Source of the DNA: a virus
Length of the DNA stretch: 59,644 nt
IMG/VR virus record: IMGVR_UViG_3300045988_078497
Coordinates: 1 to 59,644 of that record
Reading direction: 5' to 3' (one strand)
Below are positions 4,582-59,644 of the stretch, one piece after another; the first letter of the stretch is position 1; each line of letters starts with the position of its first letter. The position numbers and the translations under genes were made by a program. The notes beneath the pieces were generated by a model. The model saw only the letters and a list, made by a program, of their open reading frames with translations. It was not told the origin of the DNA and ran no database searches.

Positions 4582-5105
4582 TATTTCATACCTCCGATTG
4601 TGATGTTAATTAATAACTGAAATGCTTCATTTTCTGTAAATCCTGCATCAACAAAAGATTTATAAAGTCTGTATATTTCTTTTGCTGTATCATTAATGCT
4701 GTTATCTGCTTTTGGCTCTGAATTGGTTAATCTTTCAAATGCCAATCTGGCACCAATGTTGAAATCAAATTTATCTTCCGGATTACAACGTGCAATGGCT
4801 TTCTTTCCTGTCGATTTATCAAGTGCAATCACCTGTCTATCTTTTTTGTAAATAACGATGGTTTCTGGTGCTATCTTTTCAATATTAGCCTTGTCCACAT
4901 ATAAGCACTGTTTGCCAAAAAGATGCGTTCCATCAATATCCTTGTCGTACACAGTTCCATTACCGCCATCATGGAAGTCATCAAATTTTACTAAACAGTC
5001 AGTTTTATATTCGAATATGACGGTGCCAGGTTTACCCTTAATATCGTATGTTGTAAAAAAATCGTCTTTAACTTTCACTCTGTCTCCGATTTTAAATTTG
5101 CTCAT
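4581..5105 (-). CDS. Hypothetical protein (174 aa), start overlaps RT 3' end
   Basis: ATG 5105 preceded by AAGGAGG; MSKFKIGDRVKVKDD...; track version 4581..5237 has an implausible N-terminus inside the RT gene. Confidence 0.6.
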   Translation of the reverse strand: MSKFKIGDRVKVKDDFFTTYDIKGKPGTVIFEYKTDCLVKFDDFHDGGNGTVYDKDIDGTHLFGKQCLYVDKANIEKIAPETIVIYKKDRQVIALDKSTGKKAIARCNPEDKFDFNIGARLAFERLTNSEPKADNSINDTAKEIYRLYKSFVDAGFTENEAFQLLINITIGGMK

Positions 5106-6168
5106 GTTTGAGTACCTCCTTAACATATAAATCCATTGAATGACATAATTTAATGCAATTACCATGCATTGCATGATTTTTCCAAGCATTATATTTTTCA
5201 TAAAATTTTTTCTCTGACATTTTGTCAGAATTGACAAGTTTCGCCCAAACTCTAATCTTTTTTCGTATTCTTCTTTTGTTTACTCCATTCAATTTTCTTA
5301 TGTGTTTTCCGTCTTTTGTTATGTAATGATGAAAACCTGTAAATAACAGTCCGTTTTTAAATGGAATTATTTGTGTCTTACCGTTAAGCGATAAACAAAG
5401 GCTATTCACGAATTGTTTTATACATTCAAGACACCACTTTAAATATTCCTTATCGTGATGAATTAAATAGAAATCATCCATGTATCTTCCATAAAAATTT
5501 ATTCCAAGCTCTCCGGTCACAAAGTGATCTAATCCATTCAGAATCAGCAATGCGTATGCCTGTGCAGCTTGATTCCCTAGTGGAAGTCCAGGACCATTTG
5601 TGCTGTCAATCAGCAAATGGTTCAACCATTGCGTATAATCATCTGGGAAATAATAATCAACAATATCCTTTAAAATATCGTGATCTATTTGATAGAAAAA
5701 TTTTGTGATATCGCATTTTAAAATCCAACCATCAATTCCATGTTGATTATAAAAATCCAACATTTGCTCTTTTAAACAATCAATTCCAAAATGTGTACCT
5801 TTTCCTATCTGCCCGGCATAATTAGTTCGAATAAACTCACTTTCCAATCTCGGATGCAATACATTGTCGCATAAGCAATGCTGTACTACTTTATCTTTGA
5901 ACGAACAGGATTTAATCACTCTTTCTTTAGGCTCATATACCTTAAATTCATTGTACGGATTCATCCGGTAAGTCTGATTTTCAAGCTGCTCTTTCAAAAT
6001 GTGTAATCCCTCAAGGTTCATTATTTGAAATTTAGCACTGCTGCCATTAAATCCTTTGCCTGCTTTAGCTTTCTTATAAGCTCTATACAGGTTTTCAAAA
6101 TCACATATAACATCTTTATCCATTGTAAAAAATCCTTTGTATTTATCCTTTTCGGAATGGTCATGCAC
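5092..6168 (-). CDS. DGR reverse transcriptase
   Basis: FYGRYMDDFYLIH (YMDD), LPLGNQAAQAYA motif-4-like region, adjacent TR; alternative start at MDKDVICDFENLYRAY (6123). Confidence 0.9.
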   Translation of the reverse strand: MHDHSEKDKYKGFFTMDKDVICDFENLYRAYKKAKAGKGFNGSSAKFQIMNLEGLHILKEQLENQTYRMNPYNEFKVYEPKERVIKSCSFKDKVVQHCLCDNVLHPRLESEFIRTNYAGQIGKGTHFGIDCLKEQMLDFYNQHGIDGWILKCDITKFFYQIDHDILKDIVDYYFPDDYTQWLNHLLIDSTNGPGLPLGNQAAQAYALLILNGLDHFVTGELGINFYGRYMDDFYLIHHDKEYLKWCLECIKQFVNSLCLSLNGKTQIIPFKNGLLFTGFHHYITKDGKHIRKLNGVNKRRIRKKIRVWAKLVNSDKMSEKKFYEKYNAWKNHAMHGNCIKLCHSMDLYVKEVLKHEQI

Positions 6169-6221
6169 TTTTTTGTATCTTTTTCTGATTTCGGCTTATT
6201 GCCTACTCTTACTGTCTGTGT

Positions 6222-6296
6222 GATACAGAATGGGCGAACACCGTTGTTGTTGTTACAGTTGTTGTTGTTGATATTGCCGGACGGAGAAACAACGGT
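6222..6296 (-). repeat. DGR template repeat (TR), non-coding, 8 AAC + AAT/ATC/ACC codon-equivalents
   Basis: Coding-strand ACCGTTGTTTCTCCGTCCGGCAATATCAACAACAACAACTGTAACAACAACAACGGTGTTCGCCCATTCTGTATC; matches VR1/VR2 except at A positions and the 3' IMH* end. Confidence 0.9.
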
Positions 6297-6320
6297 TTAT
6301 ACAGTACATAACCAGTAAAA

Positions 6321-6692
6321 TTATCTGCTTTTATCTTTCGTTCTCCAAGCAATCGCCATATGCTTGATATCCGAAACCATTTTTGACCAATATTCCATAC
6401 TTCTTGTGTTGATAATATTCAGTTTCATTGATAACTCAATGTAAAACAGAAGTTCATCACAGTGAGTTATGGCTTTAGTCTGTAATTCTGACCGCTCTCT
6501 CTTGTAATACTTCAAATCGGTTCGATTTGCTTCATACAGATATTCATAGATTTCAAGTGCATTATTCTGCATTTTGTCTACCAGTGAAAATCTGTATTTC
6601 TTTGGATATCTATTGCAATTTGAAGTTACACGCAATGTATGTTCTGCCAGATCTTTTGCTTTCAAAATTACTTTTAAGTCTGATTCGGCCAT
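6321..6692 (-). CDS. avd: Accessory variability determinant (Avd), four-helix-bundle protein
   Basis: 123 aa basic helical protein (..RYPKKYRFSLVDKMQNNALEIYEYLYEAN..) located between VR and TR, the canonical DGR position. Confidence 0.8.
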   Translation of the reverse strand: MAESDLKVILKAKDLAEHTLRVTSNCNRYPKKYRFSLVDKMQNNALEIYEYLYEANRTDLKYYKRERSELQTKAITHCDELLFYIELSMKLNIINTRSMEYWSKMVSDIKHMAIAWRTKDKSR

Positions 6693-6696
6693 TTAC

Positions 6697-7293
6697 TTAT
6701 TCCTCTGATTCAAAGATTGAAGAGGAAAAGATACAAACCGGGCGAACACCGTTGAAGTCGTTACAGATGTAGCTGCCGATAAGGCCGGACGGAGAAACAA
6801 CGGCGACTGTCGATTTATAATTATTGCAAGGTGTGCTCCACGGTGTAATGAGCCACCACCATTCATCAGTATTCGGAATGAATTTTCTGTATTTTCGGTA
6901 TTCGTCAACCGTCAAAAGAGATACAAAATCATCTGTTTCCCCATATTCTTCCTGTCCATCAAGAGACAACAGGTCTCTTTTAAAAGCAACAATATTATCC
7001 TCACCAATCTCTTTGGAAACCTTTTTATAGAACTCTGTGTGGAGATAACTTCTCAAACTACTTTTTTTCCAGTCACTTGAGTTTTCATCAAACTTTTTAT
7101 TTCCCAATGAGCCACCAATACACATATATCCGGCATCCGTAATATCAAGGATTTTCCAGTTTACATCTGCAAGTTCAAATTCATCCCCGATTTTCAATCC
7201 TTTCGGAACATGTATCACACCTAGCTTTTCCTCAAGTGCTTTAACTCTGTCGAACAATTCTGAAATGTCATTTCCTGTAATTTTCTTTCCCAT
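6697..7293 (-). CDS. DGR variable target protein 1 (198 aa), C-terminal CLec-type VR (WWWL..PW....VVSPSG....GVRPV)
   Basis: VR1 at its 3' end; C-terminus DEWWWLITPWSTPCNNYKSTVAVVSPSGLIGSYICNDFNGVRPVCIF. Confidence 0.88.
   Translation of the reverse strand: MGKKITGNDISELFDRVKALEEKLGVIHVPKGLKIGDEFELADVNWKILDITDAGYMCIGGSLGNKKFDENSSDWKKSSLRSYLHTEFYKKVSKEIGEDNIVAFKRDLLSLDGQEEYGETDDFVSLLTVDEYRKYRKFIPNTDEWWWLITPWSTPCNNYKSTVAVVSPSGLIGSYICNDFNGVRPVCIFSSSIFESEE
6700..6727 (-). promoter_or_regulatory. Hairpin immediately 3' of VR1/IMH (7-bp outer stem ttcctct/agaggaa, inner tcaa/ttga)
   Basis: Read from sequence; position corresponds to the target-recognition hairpin described for the Bordetella phage DGR. 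Confidence 0.5.
6730..6804 (-). repeat. DGR variable repeat VR1
   Basis: 75 nt collinear with TR; 11 substitutions, all at TR adenines, plus 3 mismatches in the 3' IMH end (VR GGTTTGTATC vs TR ATTCTGTATC). Confidence 0.9.
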
Positions 7294-7295
7294 AA

Positions 7296-7904
7296 TTATT
7301 TATCCCCTTTCGATACAAAGATATTAGATTTCAAGATACAAACCGGGCGAACACCGCGGCCGAAGTCGTCGTAACAGTCGTAGTAGTAGATAAAGCCGGA
7401 CGGAGAAACAACGGACATGCTGTATTTCGCTCCTCTATCATCAGCAGACCACGGTGTGCATGTCCACCACCAATCATCAAGGCTTTTGTCGGCAAGCAAA
7501 TTGTTGTATTCTCTTGCTTCATCAAACGTAATAGGTCTTACTTTGCAACTGCAATTACAAAATTCGTGTTGCATATCAACGGATGTAAGTTCAACTTCGT
7601 GTTCCACAAGGTTTTGGGAACCGACTTCGGATTCAATAATCGGTTGAATTTCGTTTTCAATAACTTTTTTTAAATTCGACTTGTTGTAATCTCGTGTGTT
7701 TTCATCAAATACAACATCTTCTTTCATGAAGCCTTTTGAGATCACGGTTGTCGTATCGCAATCATGCTTCAGAACAAAAAAATCATGTTCTCCGATTTTA
7801 AACACATCACCCGGATTTAGTTCTGAAAGTCTGACCTTTTTTGCGTTTCCTGATTCTTCTAACTGTTTAACCAATTTTCTTGCAAGTTCTAATTCTTTAC
7901 TCAT
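7296..7904 (-). CDS. DGR variable target protein 2 (202 aa), paralog of target 1
   Basis: C-terminus DDWWWTCTPWSADDRGAKYSMSVVSPSGFIYYYDCYDDFGRGVRPVCIL carrying VR2. Confidence 0.85.
   Translation of the reverse strand: MSKELELARKLVKQLEESGNAKKVRLSELNPGDVFKIGEHDFFVLKHDCDTTTVISKGFMKEDVVFDENTRDYNKSNLKKVIENEIQPIIESEVGSQNLVEHEVELTSVDMQHEFCNCSCKVRPITFDEAREYNNLLADKSLDDWWWTCTPWSADDRGAKYSMSVVSPSGFIYYYDCYDDFGRGVRPVCILKSNIFVSKGDK
7335..7415 (-). repeat. DGR variable repeat VR2 (81 nt; 6-nt insertion relative to TR)
   Basis: Same flanks as VR1 (ccggacggagaaacaacgg / gggcgaacaccg, identical IMH); substitutions only at TR adenines, plus extra GGCCGC (Gly-Arg) before GGTGTTCGCCC. Confidence 0.85.
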
Positions 7905-12881: not shown

Positions 12882-13094
12882 TTAATTGGATTTGTCTGGC
12901 ACAAAAATAAAATCCATCGGAATACCAGATAAAAGGCTCATTTCTCTAAGTTGTGACAAGCTAGGTTCTGTATTACCTTTTTCCCAATTAACTACGGTAG
13001 CATTTGAAACACCCAGTTTTTTAGCCCATTCTTTCTGATTCATTCTTGCATTAACTCTTACTGCTTCTAATGAAATCTTCGGCATTTTATTCAT
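12882..13094 (-). CDS. Cro-like XRE-family HTH regulator
   Basis: MNQKEWAKKLGVSNATVVNWEKGNTEPSLSQL HTH_3 pattern; divergent from cI-like gene. Confidence 0.8.
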   Translation of the reverse strand: MNKMPKISLEAVRVNARMNQKEWAKKLGVSNATVVNWEKGNTEPSLSQLREMSLLSGIPMDFIFVPDKSN

Positions 13095-13116
13095 CTCCTT
13101 TCTTGTTTATGCCATA

Positions 13117-13145
13117 ATTATAATTCAATCAGATTGGATTGTCAA
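13117..13145 (-). promoter_or_regulatory. Early (cro-side) sigma70-type promoter: TTGACA-17 nt-TATAAT
   Basis: Minus strand gtgTTGACAatccaatctgattgaatTATAATtatgg read directly. Confidence 0.7.
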
Positions 13146-45636: not shown

Positions 45637-45818
45637 TTTAAAATTTTTTCGAGTTCATCCAATTTTGCAATCACTGTATCACGTATGAATGCGGAATTAG
45701 ATTTTTCCAACCCCAACGCCTCGATGCGTTCTTTCGTTCCTTTTGGGAATACAATATTCAATCTATAGTTGTTTTTCTCATATCTTCTTATAGCTTCTTT
45801 CTGCGCTTCTGTTGCCAT
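45633..45818 (-). CDS. Ribbon-helix-helix (Arc/CopG-type) regulator
   Basis: MATEAQKEAIRRYEKNNYRLNIVFPKGTKERIEALGLEKSNSAFIRDTVIAKLDE: beta-strand then two helices typical of RHH. Confidence 0.65.
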   Translation of the reverse strand: MATEAQKEAIRRYEKNNYRLNIVFPKGTKERIEALGLEKSNSAFIRDTVIAKLDELEKILK

Positions 45819-45849
45819 TTTTCGCCCTCCTTTTTCATTTATATATGAA

Positions 45850-45979
45850 ATAATAACATATGTGCGTTATAAAGTCAATGAATATATGTGCGTTATACGA
45901 TTTACACAAGAAAATCACGTTTATATGTGCGTTATTTTGTGTATTATTCCGTCTGTACTTTTGCGTATATGTGCGTTAT
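45850..45979. promoter_or_regulatory. 47-bp repeat copy 2 plus two further TATGTGCGTTAT cores: putative operator array in the divergent promoter region
   Basis: Cores at 45859, 45885, 45924, 45968 (plus 45599 and 45625 in copy 1). Confidence 0.7.
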
Positions 45980-46029
45980 ACTATAACCAAGTTAAGAAAC
46001 AAAAAAACAGATCGCAGGAGGAAAAGAAA

Positions 46030-46524
46030 ATGACAGAAACAAAAATTTATTTAAACACATGGGGCGCATATAACAACGGTTGCATCGGTTATGGTTGGAT
46101 GACCGCAGACGAAGCAGAAGAATTTATCGAAGAGGACCCGGAACGCGACGGCGGCGAGTGGTTCATCGCTGACATCGATAACTATTTGGGGGTTGAATTT
46201 CGCAACCTCAATTATAGCAACGTCGATGACGTTATAGAAACAATAAAGGAACTTGAGGGCATGGAAGAATACGAACGCAACGAGGTAGTAGCATTAATGG
46301 AGTATTTGAGCACAGAGGACGTTCAAGAAGCCATTGAAAAGCATGATAGCCATATTTTTTATGAGGACATTGAAAGTTATCATGACAGTTGCGACGAGCT
46401 TATAGAGCAGGAATTACAAAGCTCTGCTTCTATCGTGATGAGATACTTCGATTATGACGCATATCATCGTGATTGCGATTTTGACGTTTACGAAGCATCA
46501 AACGGCATTGTGATAGCCTCATAA
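46030..46524 (+). CDS. ardA: ArdA-like antirestriction protein (164 aa, very acidic)
   Basis: MTETKIYLNTWGAYNNGCIGYGWMTADEAEEFIEEDPERDGGEWFIAD resembles the ArdA N-terminal pattern; GCAGGAGGAAAAG RBS. Confidence 0.6.
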   Translation: MTETKIYLNTWGAYNNGCIGYGWMTADEAEEFIEEDPERDGGEWFIADIDNYLGVEFRNLNYSNVDDVIETIKELEGMEEYERNEVVALMEYLSTEDVQEAIEKHDSHIFYEDIESYHDSCDELIEQELQSSASIVMRYFDYDAYHRDCDFDVYEASNGIVIAS

Positions 46525-48530: not shown

Positions 48531-49199
48531 TTACTGGTATAATTTTTCTACTGTTCTAAGATATGTGTCTGCCAGTTCTGCCAATTCTGGGAAATAGCTA
48601 ACAATATCAAGCGCATACACTGGCTTTTTGCCAAGTTCCGCTTCGTAAATTTCATTTGTGGCTTCTAAATCGTATTCTTCGCCAAGTCGCAAAAGAATAT
48701 TGTGGTTTAGCGTCTCCACCGGCACATCCTCCTGTTTGCATATCCATTTGATTCTACGTCTATTTCTCATGTACCAGTTTGGATTTTTCGGAACCGGTGT
48801 ATTGCTTGTGTGATACTTTTGCCTTACTGCCGGAACGGATGCGGTTGTTCTAACGTTGAAATACGCATTTACAAGCTGTCTCTGCACTTGCCATGATAAA
48901 TCATCCGTAAAAGACTTTACTATCATCAGATAACCGCTTTCTGTGATCAAGTAAGTTATAAGACTTGGATTTCCCTTTATTTTTTCTTTAGGGGAATATC
49001 GTTCCCCCAATTCTTTTCTTGTTATTTCAAAATAATCCTCACCTAATACAAAATGCTTTTTATGCTTTTGGAAAGATTTCTTTGCAGTATCTGTTTTCTT
49101 ACCATGCACCTTGTCTATATCTTTCAGTGTAACAACTCTTTGCCCGTTGTACTCACGAATTTGCATTTCTGCATCTTCAATCGTAATCATATCATTCAT
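48531..49199 (-). CDS. ORF6N/KilA-N-like anti-repressor
   Basis: IREYNGQRVVTLKDIDKVHGKKTDTAKKSFQKHKKHFVLGEDYFEI typical ORF6N pattern; start at ATG 49199 after GGGGGGA. Confidence 0.6.
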   Translation of the reverse strand: MNDMITIEDAEMQIREYNGQRVVTLKDIDKVHGKKTDTAKKSFQKHKKHFVLGEDYFEITRKELGERYSPKEKIKGNPSLITYLITESGYLMIVKSFTDDLSWQVQRQLVNAYFNVRTTASVPAVRQKYHTSNTPVPKNPNWYMRNRRRIKWICKQEDVPVETLNHNILLRLGEEYDLEATNEIYEAELGKKPVYALDIVSYFPELAELADTYLRTVEKLYQ

Positions 49200-49215
49200 T
49201 GTATTATCCCCCCAA

Positions 49216-49461
49216 TCAAACAGCAGGTGTATACGTTCCATTCATTATGCCAATAGCCAACTTCATTCCTGTAACAGCATAAAAATAGTTGCTTTCTGCT
49301 GCACAGTCATTAAATATTTCTTCTAACTCAGAATAAACTTTATCACTAACAATGTCTTTGAGTTTATTCATAAATGGCTTGAAAACTTCCAAGTACTTAT
49401 CTCCCTGCTCAGCATTACCCATAATCTGATTAGTACATACAATTTCTAAAAAATTATCCAT
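49216..49461 (-). CDS. Hypothetical protein (81 aa)
   Basis: ORF track. Confidence 0.5.
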   Translation of the reverse strand: MDNFLEIVCTNQIMGNAEQGDKYLEVFKPFMNKLKDIVSDKVYSELEEIFNDCAAESNYFYAVTGMKLAIGIMNGTYTPAV

Positions 49462-59375: not shown

Positions 59376-59644
59376 TTTTATCACCGTCCTCTGCCAGTTT
59401 TGCATATTTCCAATTCCAATCAACTTTATCAAGACTTAATAAACTCCATGATGTTTTTCCATCATCCCATGCATAAACAACGCCGTCTTTAAACTTTGCA
59501 AAATGTCTATGAATCCATTCATCATCTTGACTATCTCTAACCAGAATCGGCGTATCAACTGGAACTTTGCTCCAGTCAATTTGTGGTTCGACATATTCTG
59601 ATTCGCACCATTCTTTACATGCATCGTTGCACTTGATACCCACT
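59362..59644 (-). CDS. 3' part of the junction-spanning gene (see 1..214)
   Basis: In-frame continuation through the 77-bp overlap; stop at 59362. Confidence 0.7.
   Translation of the reverse strand, partial: VGIKCNDACKEWCESEYVEPQIDWSKVPVDTPILVRDSQDDEWIHRHFAKFKDGVVYAWDDGKTSWSLLSLDKVDWNWKYAKLAEDGDKNEME
59568..59644. repeat. Terminal direct repeat, copy 2 (identical to 1-77)
   Basis: See copy 1. Confidence 0.95.

Follow-up and report, generated by a model that had tools for sequence, protein, structure and literature searches.

Why does a phage carry a DGR among its early recombination genes, and what do the two small proteins diversified by it do? The window analyzed here (IMG/VR record IMGVR_UViG_3300045988_078497, the whole stretch of 59,644 nucleotides) is the complete 59.6 kb genome of a temperate siphovirus, a gut phage whose host group is the Lachnospiraceae. 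Its DGR cassette lies in the early recombination operon, with the gene for an SbcC-like ATPase on one side and that for RecT on the other, and not among the tail genes. We lean modestly toward an explanation in which an active, canonical DGR resides in the early operon and its two targets are free hypervariable binders.

The anatomy of the element is that of an ordinary, complete DGR. An earlier reading made from the letters alone (the sequence-only reading) had identified it as such, and its genes, its TR/VR repeats, and its open reading frames at 7904–7296, 7293–6697, 6692–6321, and 6168–5092 of the minus strand were all confirmed in that order. Profile matches also bear out the SbcC-like ATPase, RecT, MBL, and SSB genes reported to flank the cassette.

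13145–13117, minus strand: perfect sigma-70 consensus promoter at the Cro-like gene (12/12 positions match)
12882–13145, minus strand: Cro-like HTH gene (HTH PHROG matches)
10002–8077, minus strand: SbcC/Rad50-like ATPase, the upstream neighbor (Pfam AAA_23 plus Rad50 zinc hook, phrog_77)
8077–7901, minus strand: 58-aa Cys-rich ORF, between the ATPase and target2
7904–7296, minus strand: target2, 202 aa; N-terminal amphipathic helix plus DUF6273 domain, VR2 C-terminal
7293–6697, minus strand: target1, 198 aa; N-terminal helix plus DUF6273 domain, VR1 C-terminal
6692–6321, minus strand: avd, accessory variability determinant, 123 aa (phrog_3206 'Avd protein of DGR', E 6e-23)
∼6298–6222, minus strand: TR
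6123–5092, minus strand: RT with YMDD, 343 aa from ATG 6123 (Pfam RVT_1, E 2e-13; phrog_1423, E 2e-97)
5105–4581, minus strand: 174-aa ORF directly downstream of the RT
4581–3805, minus strand: RecT (Pfam RecT)
3227–2481, minus strand: MBL-fold nuclease-like protein (Pfam Lactamase_B)
2236–1793, minus strand: SSB (Pfam SSB)

Weaker matches of avd to NCBIfam DivGenRetAVD (E 9e-13) and Pfam bAvd (E 9e-5) both fall under the cut-off. The RT had been drawn as 6168–5092 with YMDD. The frame is indeed open from 6168 and the motif is present, but the start is better placed downstream. Because ATG 6123 aligns in 62 relatives, whereas GTG 6168 falls within the 3′ arm of P1, a covarying RNA helix, and lacks a ribosome-binding site, the conserved ATG is most likely the start of the RT. 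The GTG was rejected on the latter two grounds.

A 74-nt repeat is found at three places in the window (6222–6295, 6730–6803, and 7341–7414). Its 20-nt 5′ anchor and 21-nt 3′ anchor each occur in three copies, for which the chance expectation is ∼0.01–0.02.

6222–6298, minus strand: TR, 74–77 nt; core of 74 nt (6295–6222), possibly plus three upstream adenines
6730–6803, minus strand: VR1, 74 nt; aligns to the TR without gaps
7335–7414, minus strand: VR2, 80 nt; 6 nt (two codons) beyond the TR, in frame
6700–6727, minus strand: imperfect inverted repeat (TTCCTCTTCAA...TTGAATCAGAGGAA) directly 3′ of VR1, a candidate target-recognition hairpin

A 75-nt TR repeated at the 3′ ends of both target genes had been described previously; the three copies stand, but the core is 74 nt and VR2 is 80 nt. 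The TR has 21 adenines; among its codons are nine AAY and one ATC. Adenines account for 11 of the 13 mismatches between TR and VR1, and for 12 of the 14 between TR and VR2, which has in addition the 6-nt in-frame length difference. The claim that substitutions are limited to TR adenines does not hold, since both VRs have the same two non-adenine differences (T>G and C>T in VR1) at the 3′ end, within the last 10 nt. These differences mark the IMH/IMH* boundary. At the site of the four AAC codons of the TR, VR2 has six codons, and the extra GGC and CGC are the products expected from AAC mutagenesis. Because its length differs from that of the current TR, VR2 has not been rewritten since the length change. 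The DNA fold of the VR1 3′ flank is weak (z = −1.9), and folding the VR2 flank (z = +0.7) revealed no counterpart of the hairpin. The sequence-only reading had seen no VR copy in the Dit/Tal/fibre-like genes, and the window as a whole holds no further VR: the anchor search returned only the three TR/VR copies, and the target-family profile detected no additional DUF6273 domain in the six frames.

The RNA layout around the TR agrees with elements of the BPP-1 DGR seen by cryo-EM.

6303–6314, minus strand: 5′ arm of the long-range RNA helix P1, pairs with 6158–6169
6193–6203, minus strand: GGC-AAUAA-GCC spacer hairpin, nearly invariant
6174–6179, minus strand: spacer segment GAUACA, pairs with the TR 3′ end UGUAUC (6227–6222); predicted template:primer duplex
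6158–6169, minus strand: 3′ arm of P1, contains GTG 6168
6136–6156, minus strand: short stem-loop UCC-GAAAA-GGA, then an A-rich tail

Across 62 sequences, 97.5% of the cells in P1 are paired and 10 of its 12 pairs change on both sides. In BPP-1, this helix corresponds to the avd:Sp 'cPRT Stop' duplex (bioRxiv 10.1101/2023.10.23.563531). The short stem-loop (two-sided changes in two of its three pairs) and its A tail have the layout of the BPP-1 cPRT Stop stem-loop plus adenosines. In the spacer hairpin, 98.9% of cells are paired. The GAUACA:UGUAUC duplex shows two-sided changes at columns 167/236 (28 of the 62 sequences) and 168/228 (24 of the 62). Overall, the model has 97.8% of cells paired and 17 of 24 pairs changing on both sides; none of 500 shuffles reached the observed value, and slid controls were 31–46% paired. 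If the GAUACA duplex is likened to BPP-1 TR:Sp and Sp A56, then the priming adenosine would be ∼6174 and the first templated base C6228. The VRs of two relatives (L002 and L007) carry the 'ATT' of the TR, but never its position-68 C (6228 in the window, directly 5′ of TGTATC). The transfer boundary thus adjoins the predicted priming duplex.

In the mechanism that we propose, the RNA segment that separates avd from the RT gene would fold so that the 12-bp helix brackets TR and spacer, and GAUACA, paired with the TR 3′ end, would prime reverse transcription by an RT–Avd complex. Adenines would be miscopied during this step. In either of the paralogous target genes, the cDNA would then replace the stretch that starts at the 5′ homology CCGTTGTTTCTCCGTCCGGC and runs up to the GC-rich IMH. 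Recoding of the nine AAY codons and the ATC codon could give ∼1.5e11 possible proteins per target.

This arrangement resembles the BPP-1 DGR (mtd-avd-TR-brt) in its order target-avd-TR-RT, adenine-specific transfer from TR to a C-terminal VR, GC-rich IMH distinct from the IMH* of the TR, upstream:downstream RNA duplex followed by a stem-loop and adenosines, and priming duplex between TR 3′ end and spacer. However, BPP-1 diversifies one 381-aa trimeric Mtd with a β-prism and a β-sandwich, whereas the window has two tandem targets, which gave no match to Mtd by sequence or Foldseek. The TR is also shorter than the 134 nt of BPP-1, the spacer is much shorter, and the BPP-1 cassette lies at the end of the tail genes.

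Comparison with relatives suggests that the DGR of the window is currently active. The TR is identical in four of them (L002, L003, L006, and L007), whose VRs differ. Seven VRs associated with an identical TR differ pairwise at 13.9 of 21 adenine sites versus 0.76 of 53 other sites. The 144 TR–VR pairs from 75 loci contain 1678 adenine and 238 non-adenine mismatches, counts that the aligner, being lenient to adenine mismatches, may tilt slightly toward adenines at alignment ends; 200 of the 238 fall within the last 14 nt. The cassette could instead be a decaying or inactive remnant, its adenine pattern recording past activity only. Canonical DGR RTs carry the motif (I/L)GxxxSQ, whereas that of the window reads LGNQAAQ. 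The lengths of VR2 and TR are no longer equal, VR2 has no downstream hairpin, and phage Lelie displays no read-level activity (PMC11792537). Nevertheless, every ORF is intact, YMDD included, and among genomes with 92–96% identical RTs the TR is invariant while the VRs are scrambled at adenines. Moreover, compensatory changes maintain the RNA helices, and in-frame length differences, which occur in 17 of the 144 pairs, are in principle no bar to homing. We consider a dead element very improbable.

When would an active cassette be expressed? On its upstream side, gene gaps are −4 to +4 nt. The SbcC/Rad50-like ATPase and the 58-aa ORF are translationally coupled to target2 (gaps of −1 and −4 nt), whose start overlaps the stop of the 58-aa ORF by 4 nt. 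Downstream, the RT stop overlaps the 174-aa ORF by 14 nt, and the gaps are −14 and −1 nt. The promoter at the Cro-like gene, likely the early promoter, lies 5.2 kb from target2, and no strong minus-strand terminators were found between it and the cassette. Transcription probably proceeds from this promoter early in infection. With the whole cassette translationally coupled into this operon, the RT, Avd, TR RNA, and both targets would be made during phage DNA replication.

Adjacency to RecT and SSB might also be functional for the retroelement itself. In this view, the mutagenized cDNA would be captured by the phage SSAP and SSB, which would anneal it to the VR at replication forks; this would be a natural equivalent of retron or 'DGRec' recombineering and fits either target role. 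How the cDNA becomes integrated is described as unknown, and an engineered BPP-1 DGR without IMH needed CspRecT in E. coli (bioRxiv 10.1101/2025.03.24.644984). A lagging-strand bias is reported for a reconstituted DGR (PMC12875486). An SSAP lies within 5 kb on the same strand in 61 of 80 window-family loci, distant prophages carry non-homologous SSAPs (Sak with YqaJ, or Rad52-like) 0.6–2 kb after the RT, and in six loci SSB abuts the RT stop. In contrast, a detectable SSAP within 5 kb is present in only 13 of 80 genome loci and SSB in 26 of 80, in other loci the cassette follows methylase or ParB genes and lies ∼2 kb ahead of the terminase, and BPP-1 homing needs no such neighbor. Early operons of temperate Firmicutes phages normally carry such recombination genes, so the proximity may be incidental. 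A role for these neighbors in homing seems unlikely to us. DGRec (DGR RT–Avd plus CspRecT recombineering) likewise sets a DGR reverse-transcription module beside a RecT-family annealing protein, but it is synthetic and IMH-independent, whereas the adjacency in the window, which may be functional, is natural and not universal in the lineage.

The targets themselves were characterized by profile and structure comparisons. Target1 matches Pfam DUF6273 (E 7e-11; 42.7 bits, over the cut-off) and phrog_9958 (E 1.4e-45). Its AlphaFold2 model has a pLDDT of 86.8, and its structural matches in BFVD are DUF6273 phage proteins. Target2 matches DUF6273 at E 2.7e-4 (21.3 bits, under the 23.5 cut-off), phrog_9958 at E 9e-31, and the target-family profile at E 8e-87. 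Both are small lectin-like proteins that the DGR hypermutates. By simple hydropathy neither has a TM-like or signal-like segment (maximum 19-residue Kyte-Doolittle mean <1.0), as had been noted before. No β-prism, β-sandwich, or Ig anchoring domain was found in the targets with Pfam or the AlphaFold2 model. The second target of distant relatives consists of the domain alone and lacks the N-terminal extension.

This DGR has 576 relatives in IMG/VR and 394 in Clostridia genomes. In most of them the two targets are small, arranged in tandem, and encoded in a non-structural region. Those in IMG/VR keep the order SbcC-target2-target1-avd-RT-RecT..MBL..SSB. A tandem pair of small targets is present in 54 of 80 genome loci, which represent related prophages; the pair is located after Int/cI/cro, beside SSB or SSAP, or ∼2 kb before TerL. 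A small-target cassette was found in the tail module at 0 of the 160 loci examined. Large-target relatives adjoin tape-measure or lysin genes, and in a sister group with a 616-aa target the cassette directly follows the tape-measure gene. An early or non-structural location is general for this DGR lineage, holding in most relatives examined. The early-operon context was described correctly in the sequence-only reading, but it is not a unique arrangement. Likewise, the paralogous tandem pair exists, but to call it unusual is an overstatement given its recurrence in the related prophages. Two targets occur in ∼13% of DGRs, a figure cited in PMC10743442.

Both small DUF6273 proteins could alternatively be virion adhesins or receptor-binding accessories, like Mtd or a minimal tentaclin, that dock on the tail tip or capsid via the N-terminal helix or the domain body. 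Adaptation of host range or mucus adherence, as in BPP-1, would then be the purpose of the DGR, and the early operon would be only a landing site for the cassette. Receptor binding, by Mtd, is the sole experimentally proven role of a phage DGR target according to work cited in PMC10743442. DUF6273 is also present in tentaclin/Hoc-like proteins, whose presumed role is virion decoration or receptor binding, and the small nd4/nd12 and Toutatis targets were read by their authors as Mtd-like receptor binders (PMC10743442; bioRxiv 10.1101/2024.10.15.618418). In nd4, an Ig-domain tentaclin gene is reported to share the DGR cassette with the small target2 (PMC10743442). The best structural matches of the window proteins are uncultured-phage DUF6273 proteins, one named 'Receptor Binding Protein', and both targets have a match to phrog_10993 'Hoc-like head decoration' in their VR-proximal portion. 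Both also have a heptad-like, coiled-coil-like N-terminal helix, which could be a docking or oligomerization element. Against this stand the missing anchoring domains, the bare-domain second target of many relatives, and the segregation of small-target cassettes from the tail module that large-target relatives do not share. In Toutatisvirus, the small target (gp24 of Toutatis) belongs to the core genes of the early region, and 17.5 kb separate it from the TR. Gene position is a poor guide to target role. Early proteins can persist for later assembly, and genes for decoration proteins often lie outside structural modules. A virion role is a serious possibility, but we would wager against it.

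That the targets are early non-virion binders is plausible, the basis being gene position and the missing anchoring domain; we regard free hypervariable binders as somewhat likelier than receptor-binding proteins of the tail module. In that case, they would be made early, and the most plausible ligand would be a variable host factor inside the infected cell.

The arrangement itself is not unique, and both small DUF6273 and 'non-structural' phage DGR targets have been published. The sequence-only reading considered the lack of a signal peptide unusual, but small single-domain DUF6273 targets with none were already described for nd4/nd12 and Toutatis/Lelie (PMC10743442; PMC11792537; bioRxiv 10.1101/2024.10.15.618418). 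The small or second targets of nd4/nd12 and the Faecalibacterium phages Toutatis, Lelie, and CP11 are ∼30% identical to those of the window. They too have a single DUF6273 between short helices, a C-terminal VR, no signal peptide, and a gene away from the tail genes; nd4 target2 lies among non-structural genes, several kilobases upstream of SSB and DnaC genes. In these phages, however, a large Ig-domain tentaclin/Hoc-like target accompanies the small one, which in Toutatis is remote from the TR, whereas both window targets are small and adjoin avd-TR-RT, with no large target.

A target without virion-gene neighbors is not novel either. Benler et al. 2021 (PMC8008677) described a two-target phage DGR in Quimbyvirus, and the target outside the structural module was explicitly proposed to be non-structural and to act in phage–host conflict. 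That phage differs in its Bacteroides host, in an RT encoded in three frames, and in having one target beside tail fiber genes. Its second target lies on the opposite strand in a defence/anti-defence island, whereas both window targets are part of the recombination operon.

The window is a complete, circularly permuted or closed genome of ~59.57 kb (~59,567 bp), since its ends (1-77 and 59568-59644) are identical over 77 nt. Scans with PHROG and Pfam profiles located the following genes, which include a divergent lysogeny switch:

39044-37305, minus strand, terminase
no coordinates, minus strand, portal
31410-30337, minus strand, major head protein
26046-20887, minus strand, tape measure
20045-16002, minus strand, 1347-aa tail protein
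15911-14931, minus strand, endolysin
54713-53577, minus strand, integrase
no coordinates, minus strand, DnaD-like loaders
13231, plus strand, cI-like gene, and 13094, minus strand, cro-like gene, the divergent pair of the lysogeny switch

The phage is a temperate siphovirus. Among prophages, the closest lie in Lachnospiraceae metagenome-assembled genomes (the best in Agathobacter sp., with an RT identity of 78%), and a DNA-level search of isolated phage genomes returned no relative except one 5.6-kb fragment.

The diversity-generating retroelement (DGR) reported by the sequence-only reading is present, with its open reading frames (ORFs) at the positions first assigned: target 2 (7904-7296), target 1 (7293-6697), avd, and the reverse transcriptase (RT) gene, all on the minus strand. 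The claimed three-fold repeat was recovered as a 74-nt element found three times in the window, once as the template repeat (TR) and once in each target gene as a variable repeat (VR1, 6730-6803; VR2, 7335-7414). Its 20-nt 5′ anchor and 21-nt 3′ anchor each occur in three copies, compared with ~0.01-0.02 expected. Each target has a match to Pfam DUF6273 and another to phrog_9958. The RT matches RVT_1 (E = 2e-13) and phrog_1423 (E = 2e-97) and carries YMDD. At the palm motif of DGR RTs, which has the consensus (I/L/V)GxxxSQ, the window RT reads LGNQAAQ, with A replacing S. Avd (123 aa, adjoining TR) is identified by phrog_3206 (E = 6e-23); its match to NCBIfam DivGenRetAVD (E = 9e-13, 48 bits) falls below the cut-off of 80. 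The flanking genes are, as described, those for an SbcC/Rad50-like ATPase, RecT, an MBL-fold protein and SSB.

The substitutions had been said to fall only on TR adenines. This is true of 11 of the 13 mismatches in VR1 and 12 of the 14 in VR2, but each VR also has two at other bases. The non-adenine mismatches between TR and VR1 are T>G and C>T near the 3′ end and are common to both VRs. They are the expected difference between IMH, at the 3′ end of a VR, and IMH*, its TR counterpart, and not a flaw: the sequence is GGTGTTCGCCCGGTTTGTATC in the VR but GGTGTTCGCCCATTCTGTATC in the TR. In DGRs this difference confers directionality. VR2 also differs in length, having six codons opposite the four AAC codons of TR. 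The extra codons, GGC and CGC, would be expected products of AAC mutagenesis. Either the TR from which VR2 was copied was longer, therefore, or VR2 changed in length later. In-frame length differences occur in 17 of the 144 TR-VR pairs of the family (L002-L081, numbered relative loci, plus the window); the differences amount to 3, 6 or 9 nt and fall in the AAC-repeat tract, a pattern suggesting that slippage during reverse transcription or replication may be a second, length-changing source of VR diversity. A hairpin or cruciform 3′ of the VR enhances target recognition in DGRs. When such structures were sought, the 3′ flank of VR1 gave a weak candidate fold (z = -1.9), and the VR2 flank gave none (z = +0.7).

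With the RT as query, 576 relatives were recovered from IMG/VR and 394 from species-representative genomes, and the same cassette is found in the 160 loci fetched and examined. Across 144 TR-VR pairs in 75 loci, there are 1678 mismatches at TR adenines versus 238 elsewhere, of which 200 lie in the last 14 nt; the scoring was lenient for adenines, but nearly every alignment runs without a gap between its identical anchors. For the seven VRs whose cognate TR is identical to that of the window, 13.9 of 21 adenine sites differ per pair, versus 0.76 of 53 other sites. The genomes with an identical TR but scrambled VRs have RTs that are 92-96% identical, and a fixed TR accompanied by scrambled VRs at this level of identity is, in sequence terms, the signature of a working DGR. 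Judged from these comparisons, the classification of the cassette as a canonical, active DGR appears secure.

IMG/VR contigs of close relatives break exactly at VRs, where four end (L167, L168, L170 and L171) and three start (L002, L005 and L007). Assembly breaks at TR/VR repeats, VR micro-heterogeneity or a combination of the two could give this pattern. We do not take the contig ends as proof of within-sample VR heterogeneity because three near-identical repeats alone can break assemblies.

The region between the avd stop and the RT start was aligned for 62 diverse relatives and evaluated with RNAalifold and explicit pair counting. Covariation among these sequences supports a structured RNA with an upstream:downstream duplex and a TR:spacer priming duplex. 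The former is a 12-bp long-range helix in which 6314-6303 pairs with 6169-6158, enclosing TR and spacer, and ten of its pairs change on both sides. The latter joins the TR 3′ end UGUAUC (6227-6222) with the spacer GAUACA (6179-6174) and is replaced by GUGG/CCAC in the Oscillospiraceae clade. A GGC/GCC hairpin and a short stem-loop followed by adenosines complete the set. Overall, 97.8% of alignment cells are paired versus 31-46% with slid partners, and none of 500 shuffles reaches the observed value. The layout is the same as that in the cryo-EM structure of the DGR RNA of Bordetella phage BPP-1, where avd pairs with Sp in the ‘cPRT Stop’ duplex, a stem-loop with A-minor adenosines lies beside it, and TR pairs with Sp as template:primer duplex; the authors of that study predicted this layout for Bacillota DGRs as well (bioRxiv 10.1101/2023.10.23.563531). 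No Rfam family covers this RNA, either in the window region alone or above threshold in seven relatives. An initial RT-2 match downstream of TR (17.7 bits) was discarded because it vanished when the region was searched alone and had no counterpart above threshold in those relatives.

The RNA also bears on the start of the RT gene, which had been placed at 6168-5092. The gene appears better placed at 6123-5092, since GTG 6168 lies within the helix and lacks a ribosome-binding site, whereas ATG 6123 is aligned in all relatives. C6228 is a TR-specific base that is absent from every VR of close relatives, and the adjacent TR ‘ATT’ is sometimes found in VRs (L002, L007). From the position of the priming duplex, we infer that C6228 is the first templated base, with priming at about A6174. 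The predicted priming site therefore agrees with the observed transfer boundary.

The cassette is tightly packed among its neighbors. Gaps from the SbcC-like gene through avd are -1, -4, +2 and +4 nt. On the other side, the end of the RT gene shares 14 nt with the following ORF, which in turn shares 1 nt with RecT. A perfect sigma-70 consensus (12/12) lies at 13145-13117, upstream of cro, and no convincing minus-strand terminator was found between this promoter and the cassette. These features make the cassette an integral component of the early operon, and it is presumably transcribed early. Two ORFs are translationally coupled to it on the minus strand, one of 174 aa after RT (5105-4581) and a Cys-rich one of 58 aa before target 2 (8077-7901). 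Both were detected only in the closest relatives and so probably are not part of the DGR. A match of the MBL protein to Apyc1 (anti-Pycsar), which could have marked a counter-defence neighborhood, was rejected at 18.6 bits against a cut-off of 50. The tail genes hold no VR copy, as the sequence-only reading had noted: a target-family profile run against six frames of the window detects only target 1, target 2 and translated TR.

This arrangement is widespread. All IMG/VR relatives with enough flanking sequence keep the order SbcC-target2-target1-avd-RT-(RecT)-MBL-SSB or a permuted form of it with SSB or RecT ahead of the cassette. A search for relatives lacking the DGR, with the SbcC-like protein as query, gave only eight close relatives, six of which are the IMG/VR contigs that carry the DGR loci L002-L007. 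One IMG/VR relative has three tandem targets (L006), the relative locus with an extra target differs in having it between the SbcC-like and MBL genes (L073), and the close relatives L050 and L051 have a single target. This variation from one to three among close relatives shows ongoing target duplication and loss. A set of 80 prophage loci, each from a different Clostridia species, extends to RTs of only ~50% identity; two small tandem targets are present in 54 and one in 15. In 26 of these loci, Int/cI/cro precede the cassette at a distance of 0.05-7.4 kb, and SSB comes after the cassette in 23, abutting the RT stop in six. Sak plus YqaJ, or a Rad52-like annealing protein, follows in some loci instead of RecT; elsewhere the cassette lies after methylase or ParB genes, ~2 kb before terminase. 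In a sister group with a 616-aa target, the cassette immediately follows the tape-measure gene. Wherever the small-target architecture was observed, it lay in a non-structural region.

AlphaFold2 gave a pLDDT of 36 with a shallow alignment of close homologues and 86.8 with a diverse alignment. In the latter, confident model, residues 7-24 form a helix at the N-terminus and are followed by a compact α/β domain; the VR is a lower-confidence surface segment near the C-terminus. TR encodes ~1.5e11 variants per target when the ATC codon inside IMH is excluded. Neither target has a hydrophobic segment, and in distant relatives the second target is without any N-terminal extension. Neither a Foldseek comparison with the PDB nor a profile search of its sequences returned a C-type-lectin or Mtd match, and on this basis we do not assign to the targets the C-type-lectin fold on which DGR variable proteins display the VR. 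The targets also differ from tentaclins, the large Ig-domain DUF6273 proteins, in being 198 and 202 aa long with a single DUF6273, a C-terminal VR and no Ig/Fn3 domain. Mtd-like proteins attach to the tail fibre through an N-terminal β-prism and β-sandwich and are encoded in the tail module, whereas the window targets have neither of these domains and lie in the early operon. Two rare single ORFs, P0121 (389 aa) and P0122 (395 aa), contain two DUF6273 domains; P0121 appears to join a target2-like half to a target1-like half. These fusions, which are on short contigs and may be artefacts, give a weak hint that the two targets could work together.

The proven use of DGRs in phages is tail-fibre tropism switching, and the possibility that the targets are virion adhesins remains strong. 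Small single-domain DUF6273 targets have been described in nd4/nd12 (PMC10743442) and in Lelie/CP11/Toutatis, where that of Toutatis is a core gene 17.5 kb from TR (PMC11792537; bioRxiv 10.1101/2024.10.15.618418), and all were read as receptor binders. We nevertheless lean slightly toward free, early-made binders rather than receptor-binding proteins of the tail module, for three reasons: the targets stay in non-structural regions even though the contexts are several and distinct, they have no anchoring domain, and relatives with large targets differ in lying in tail modules. For Quimbyvirus, Benler et al. (PMC8008677) proposed a non-structural DGR target, and a 2026 preprint reports a DUF6273 tentaclin that is expressed and secreted by lysogens (10.64898/2026.05.08.723808). 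A more specific proposal, which we consider improbable, is that the two DUF6273 proteins are intracellular early binders, akin to phage antibodies, whose DGR-renewed repertoire, perhaps as a hetero-pair, neutralises or senses variable host defence proteins. If so, the cassette would be a programmable counter-defence module and not a host-range device, with the corollary that the neighboring RecT and SSB may supply the long-sought cDNA integration step.

A role for a neighboring RecT, Sak or Rad52-type protein and SSB in integrating cDNA might apply whichever function the targets have. The integration step is unsolved, and DGRec, an engineered RT-Avd combined with CspRecT, needs RecT. However, such adjacency is not universal in the lineage: within 5 kb, an annealing protein of these types is present in 13 and SSB in 26 of the 80 genome loci, and other contexts exist. 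The natural juxtaposition is still a testable lead on how cDNA enters the target.

To our knowledge, DGRs are the only natural targeted protein hypermutation machines in prokaryotes. Here, a large, abundant lineage of gut Clostridia phages carries the whole cassette, with only small anchor-less lectin-like targets, in early or non-structural blocks. Our literature searches found no account of a whole cassette with only small targets inside an early recombination/replication block. Should these proteins work within infected cells, counter-defence or host takeover would be added to the biology of DGRs. The short 74-nt TR and compact, covariation-defined DGR RNA make this a minimal Gram-positive phage system that could be reconstituted.

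Several other features of the genome were observed. Between the genes for portal and major head protein lies an ORF of 758 aa (34757-32481, minus) that has no Pfam or PHROG match, and 45769-46524 (plus) has a weak match to an ArdA-like anti-restriction PHROG (E = 1.7e-7). There is a second anti-repressor gene at 48531-49241 (minus), besides the one at 11703-10978. A PAPS-reductase-like gene is divided between two minus-strand ORFs (1782-1321 and 1282-605) separated by 38 nt, the first covering Pfam profile positions 3-50 and the second 80-172; this could reflect a frameshift, a pseudogene, a sequencing error or a true split gene. The tyrosine integrase gene lies downstream of the DnaD-like replication genes and not beside the repressor, ~18 kb from the cI/cro switch around the circle. 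In a related Oscillospiraceae prophage (L098), a tRNA gene at 43-124, beside the integrase end, is a likely integration site.
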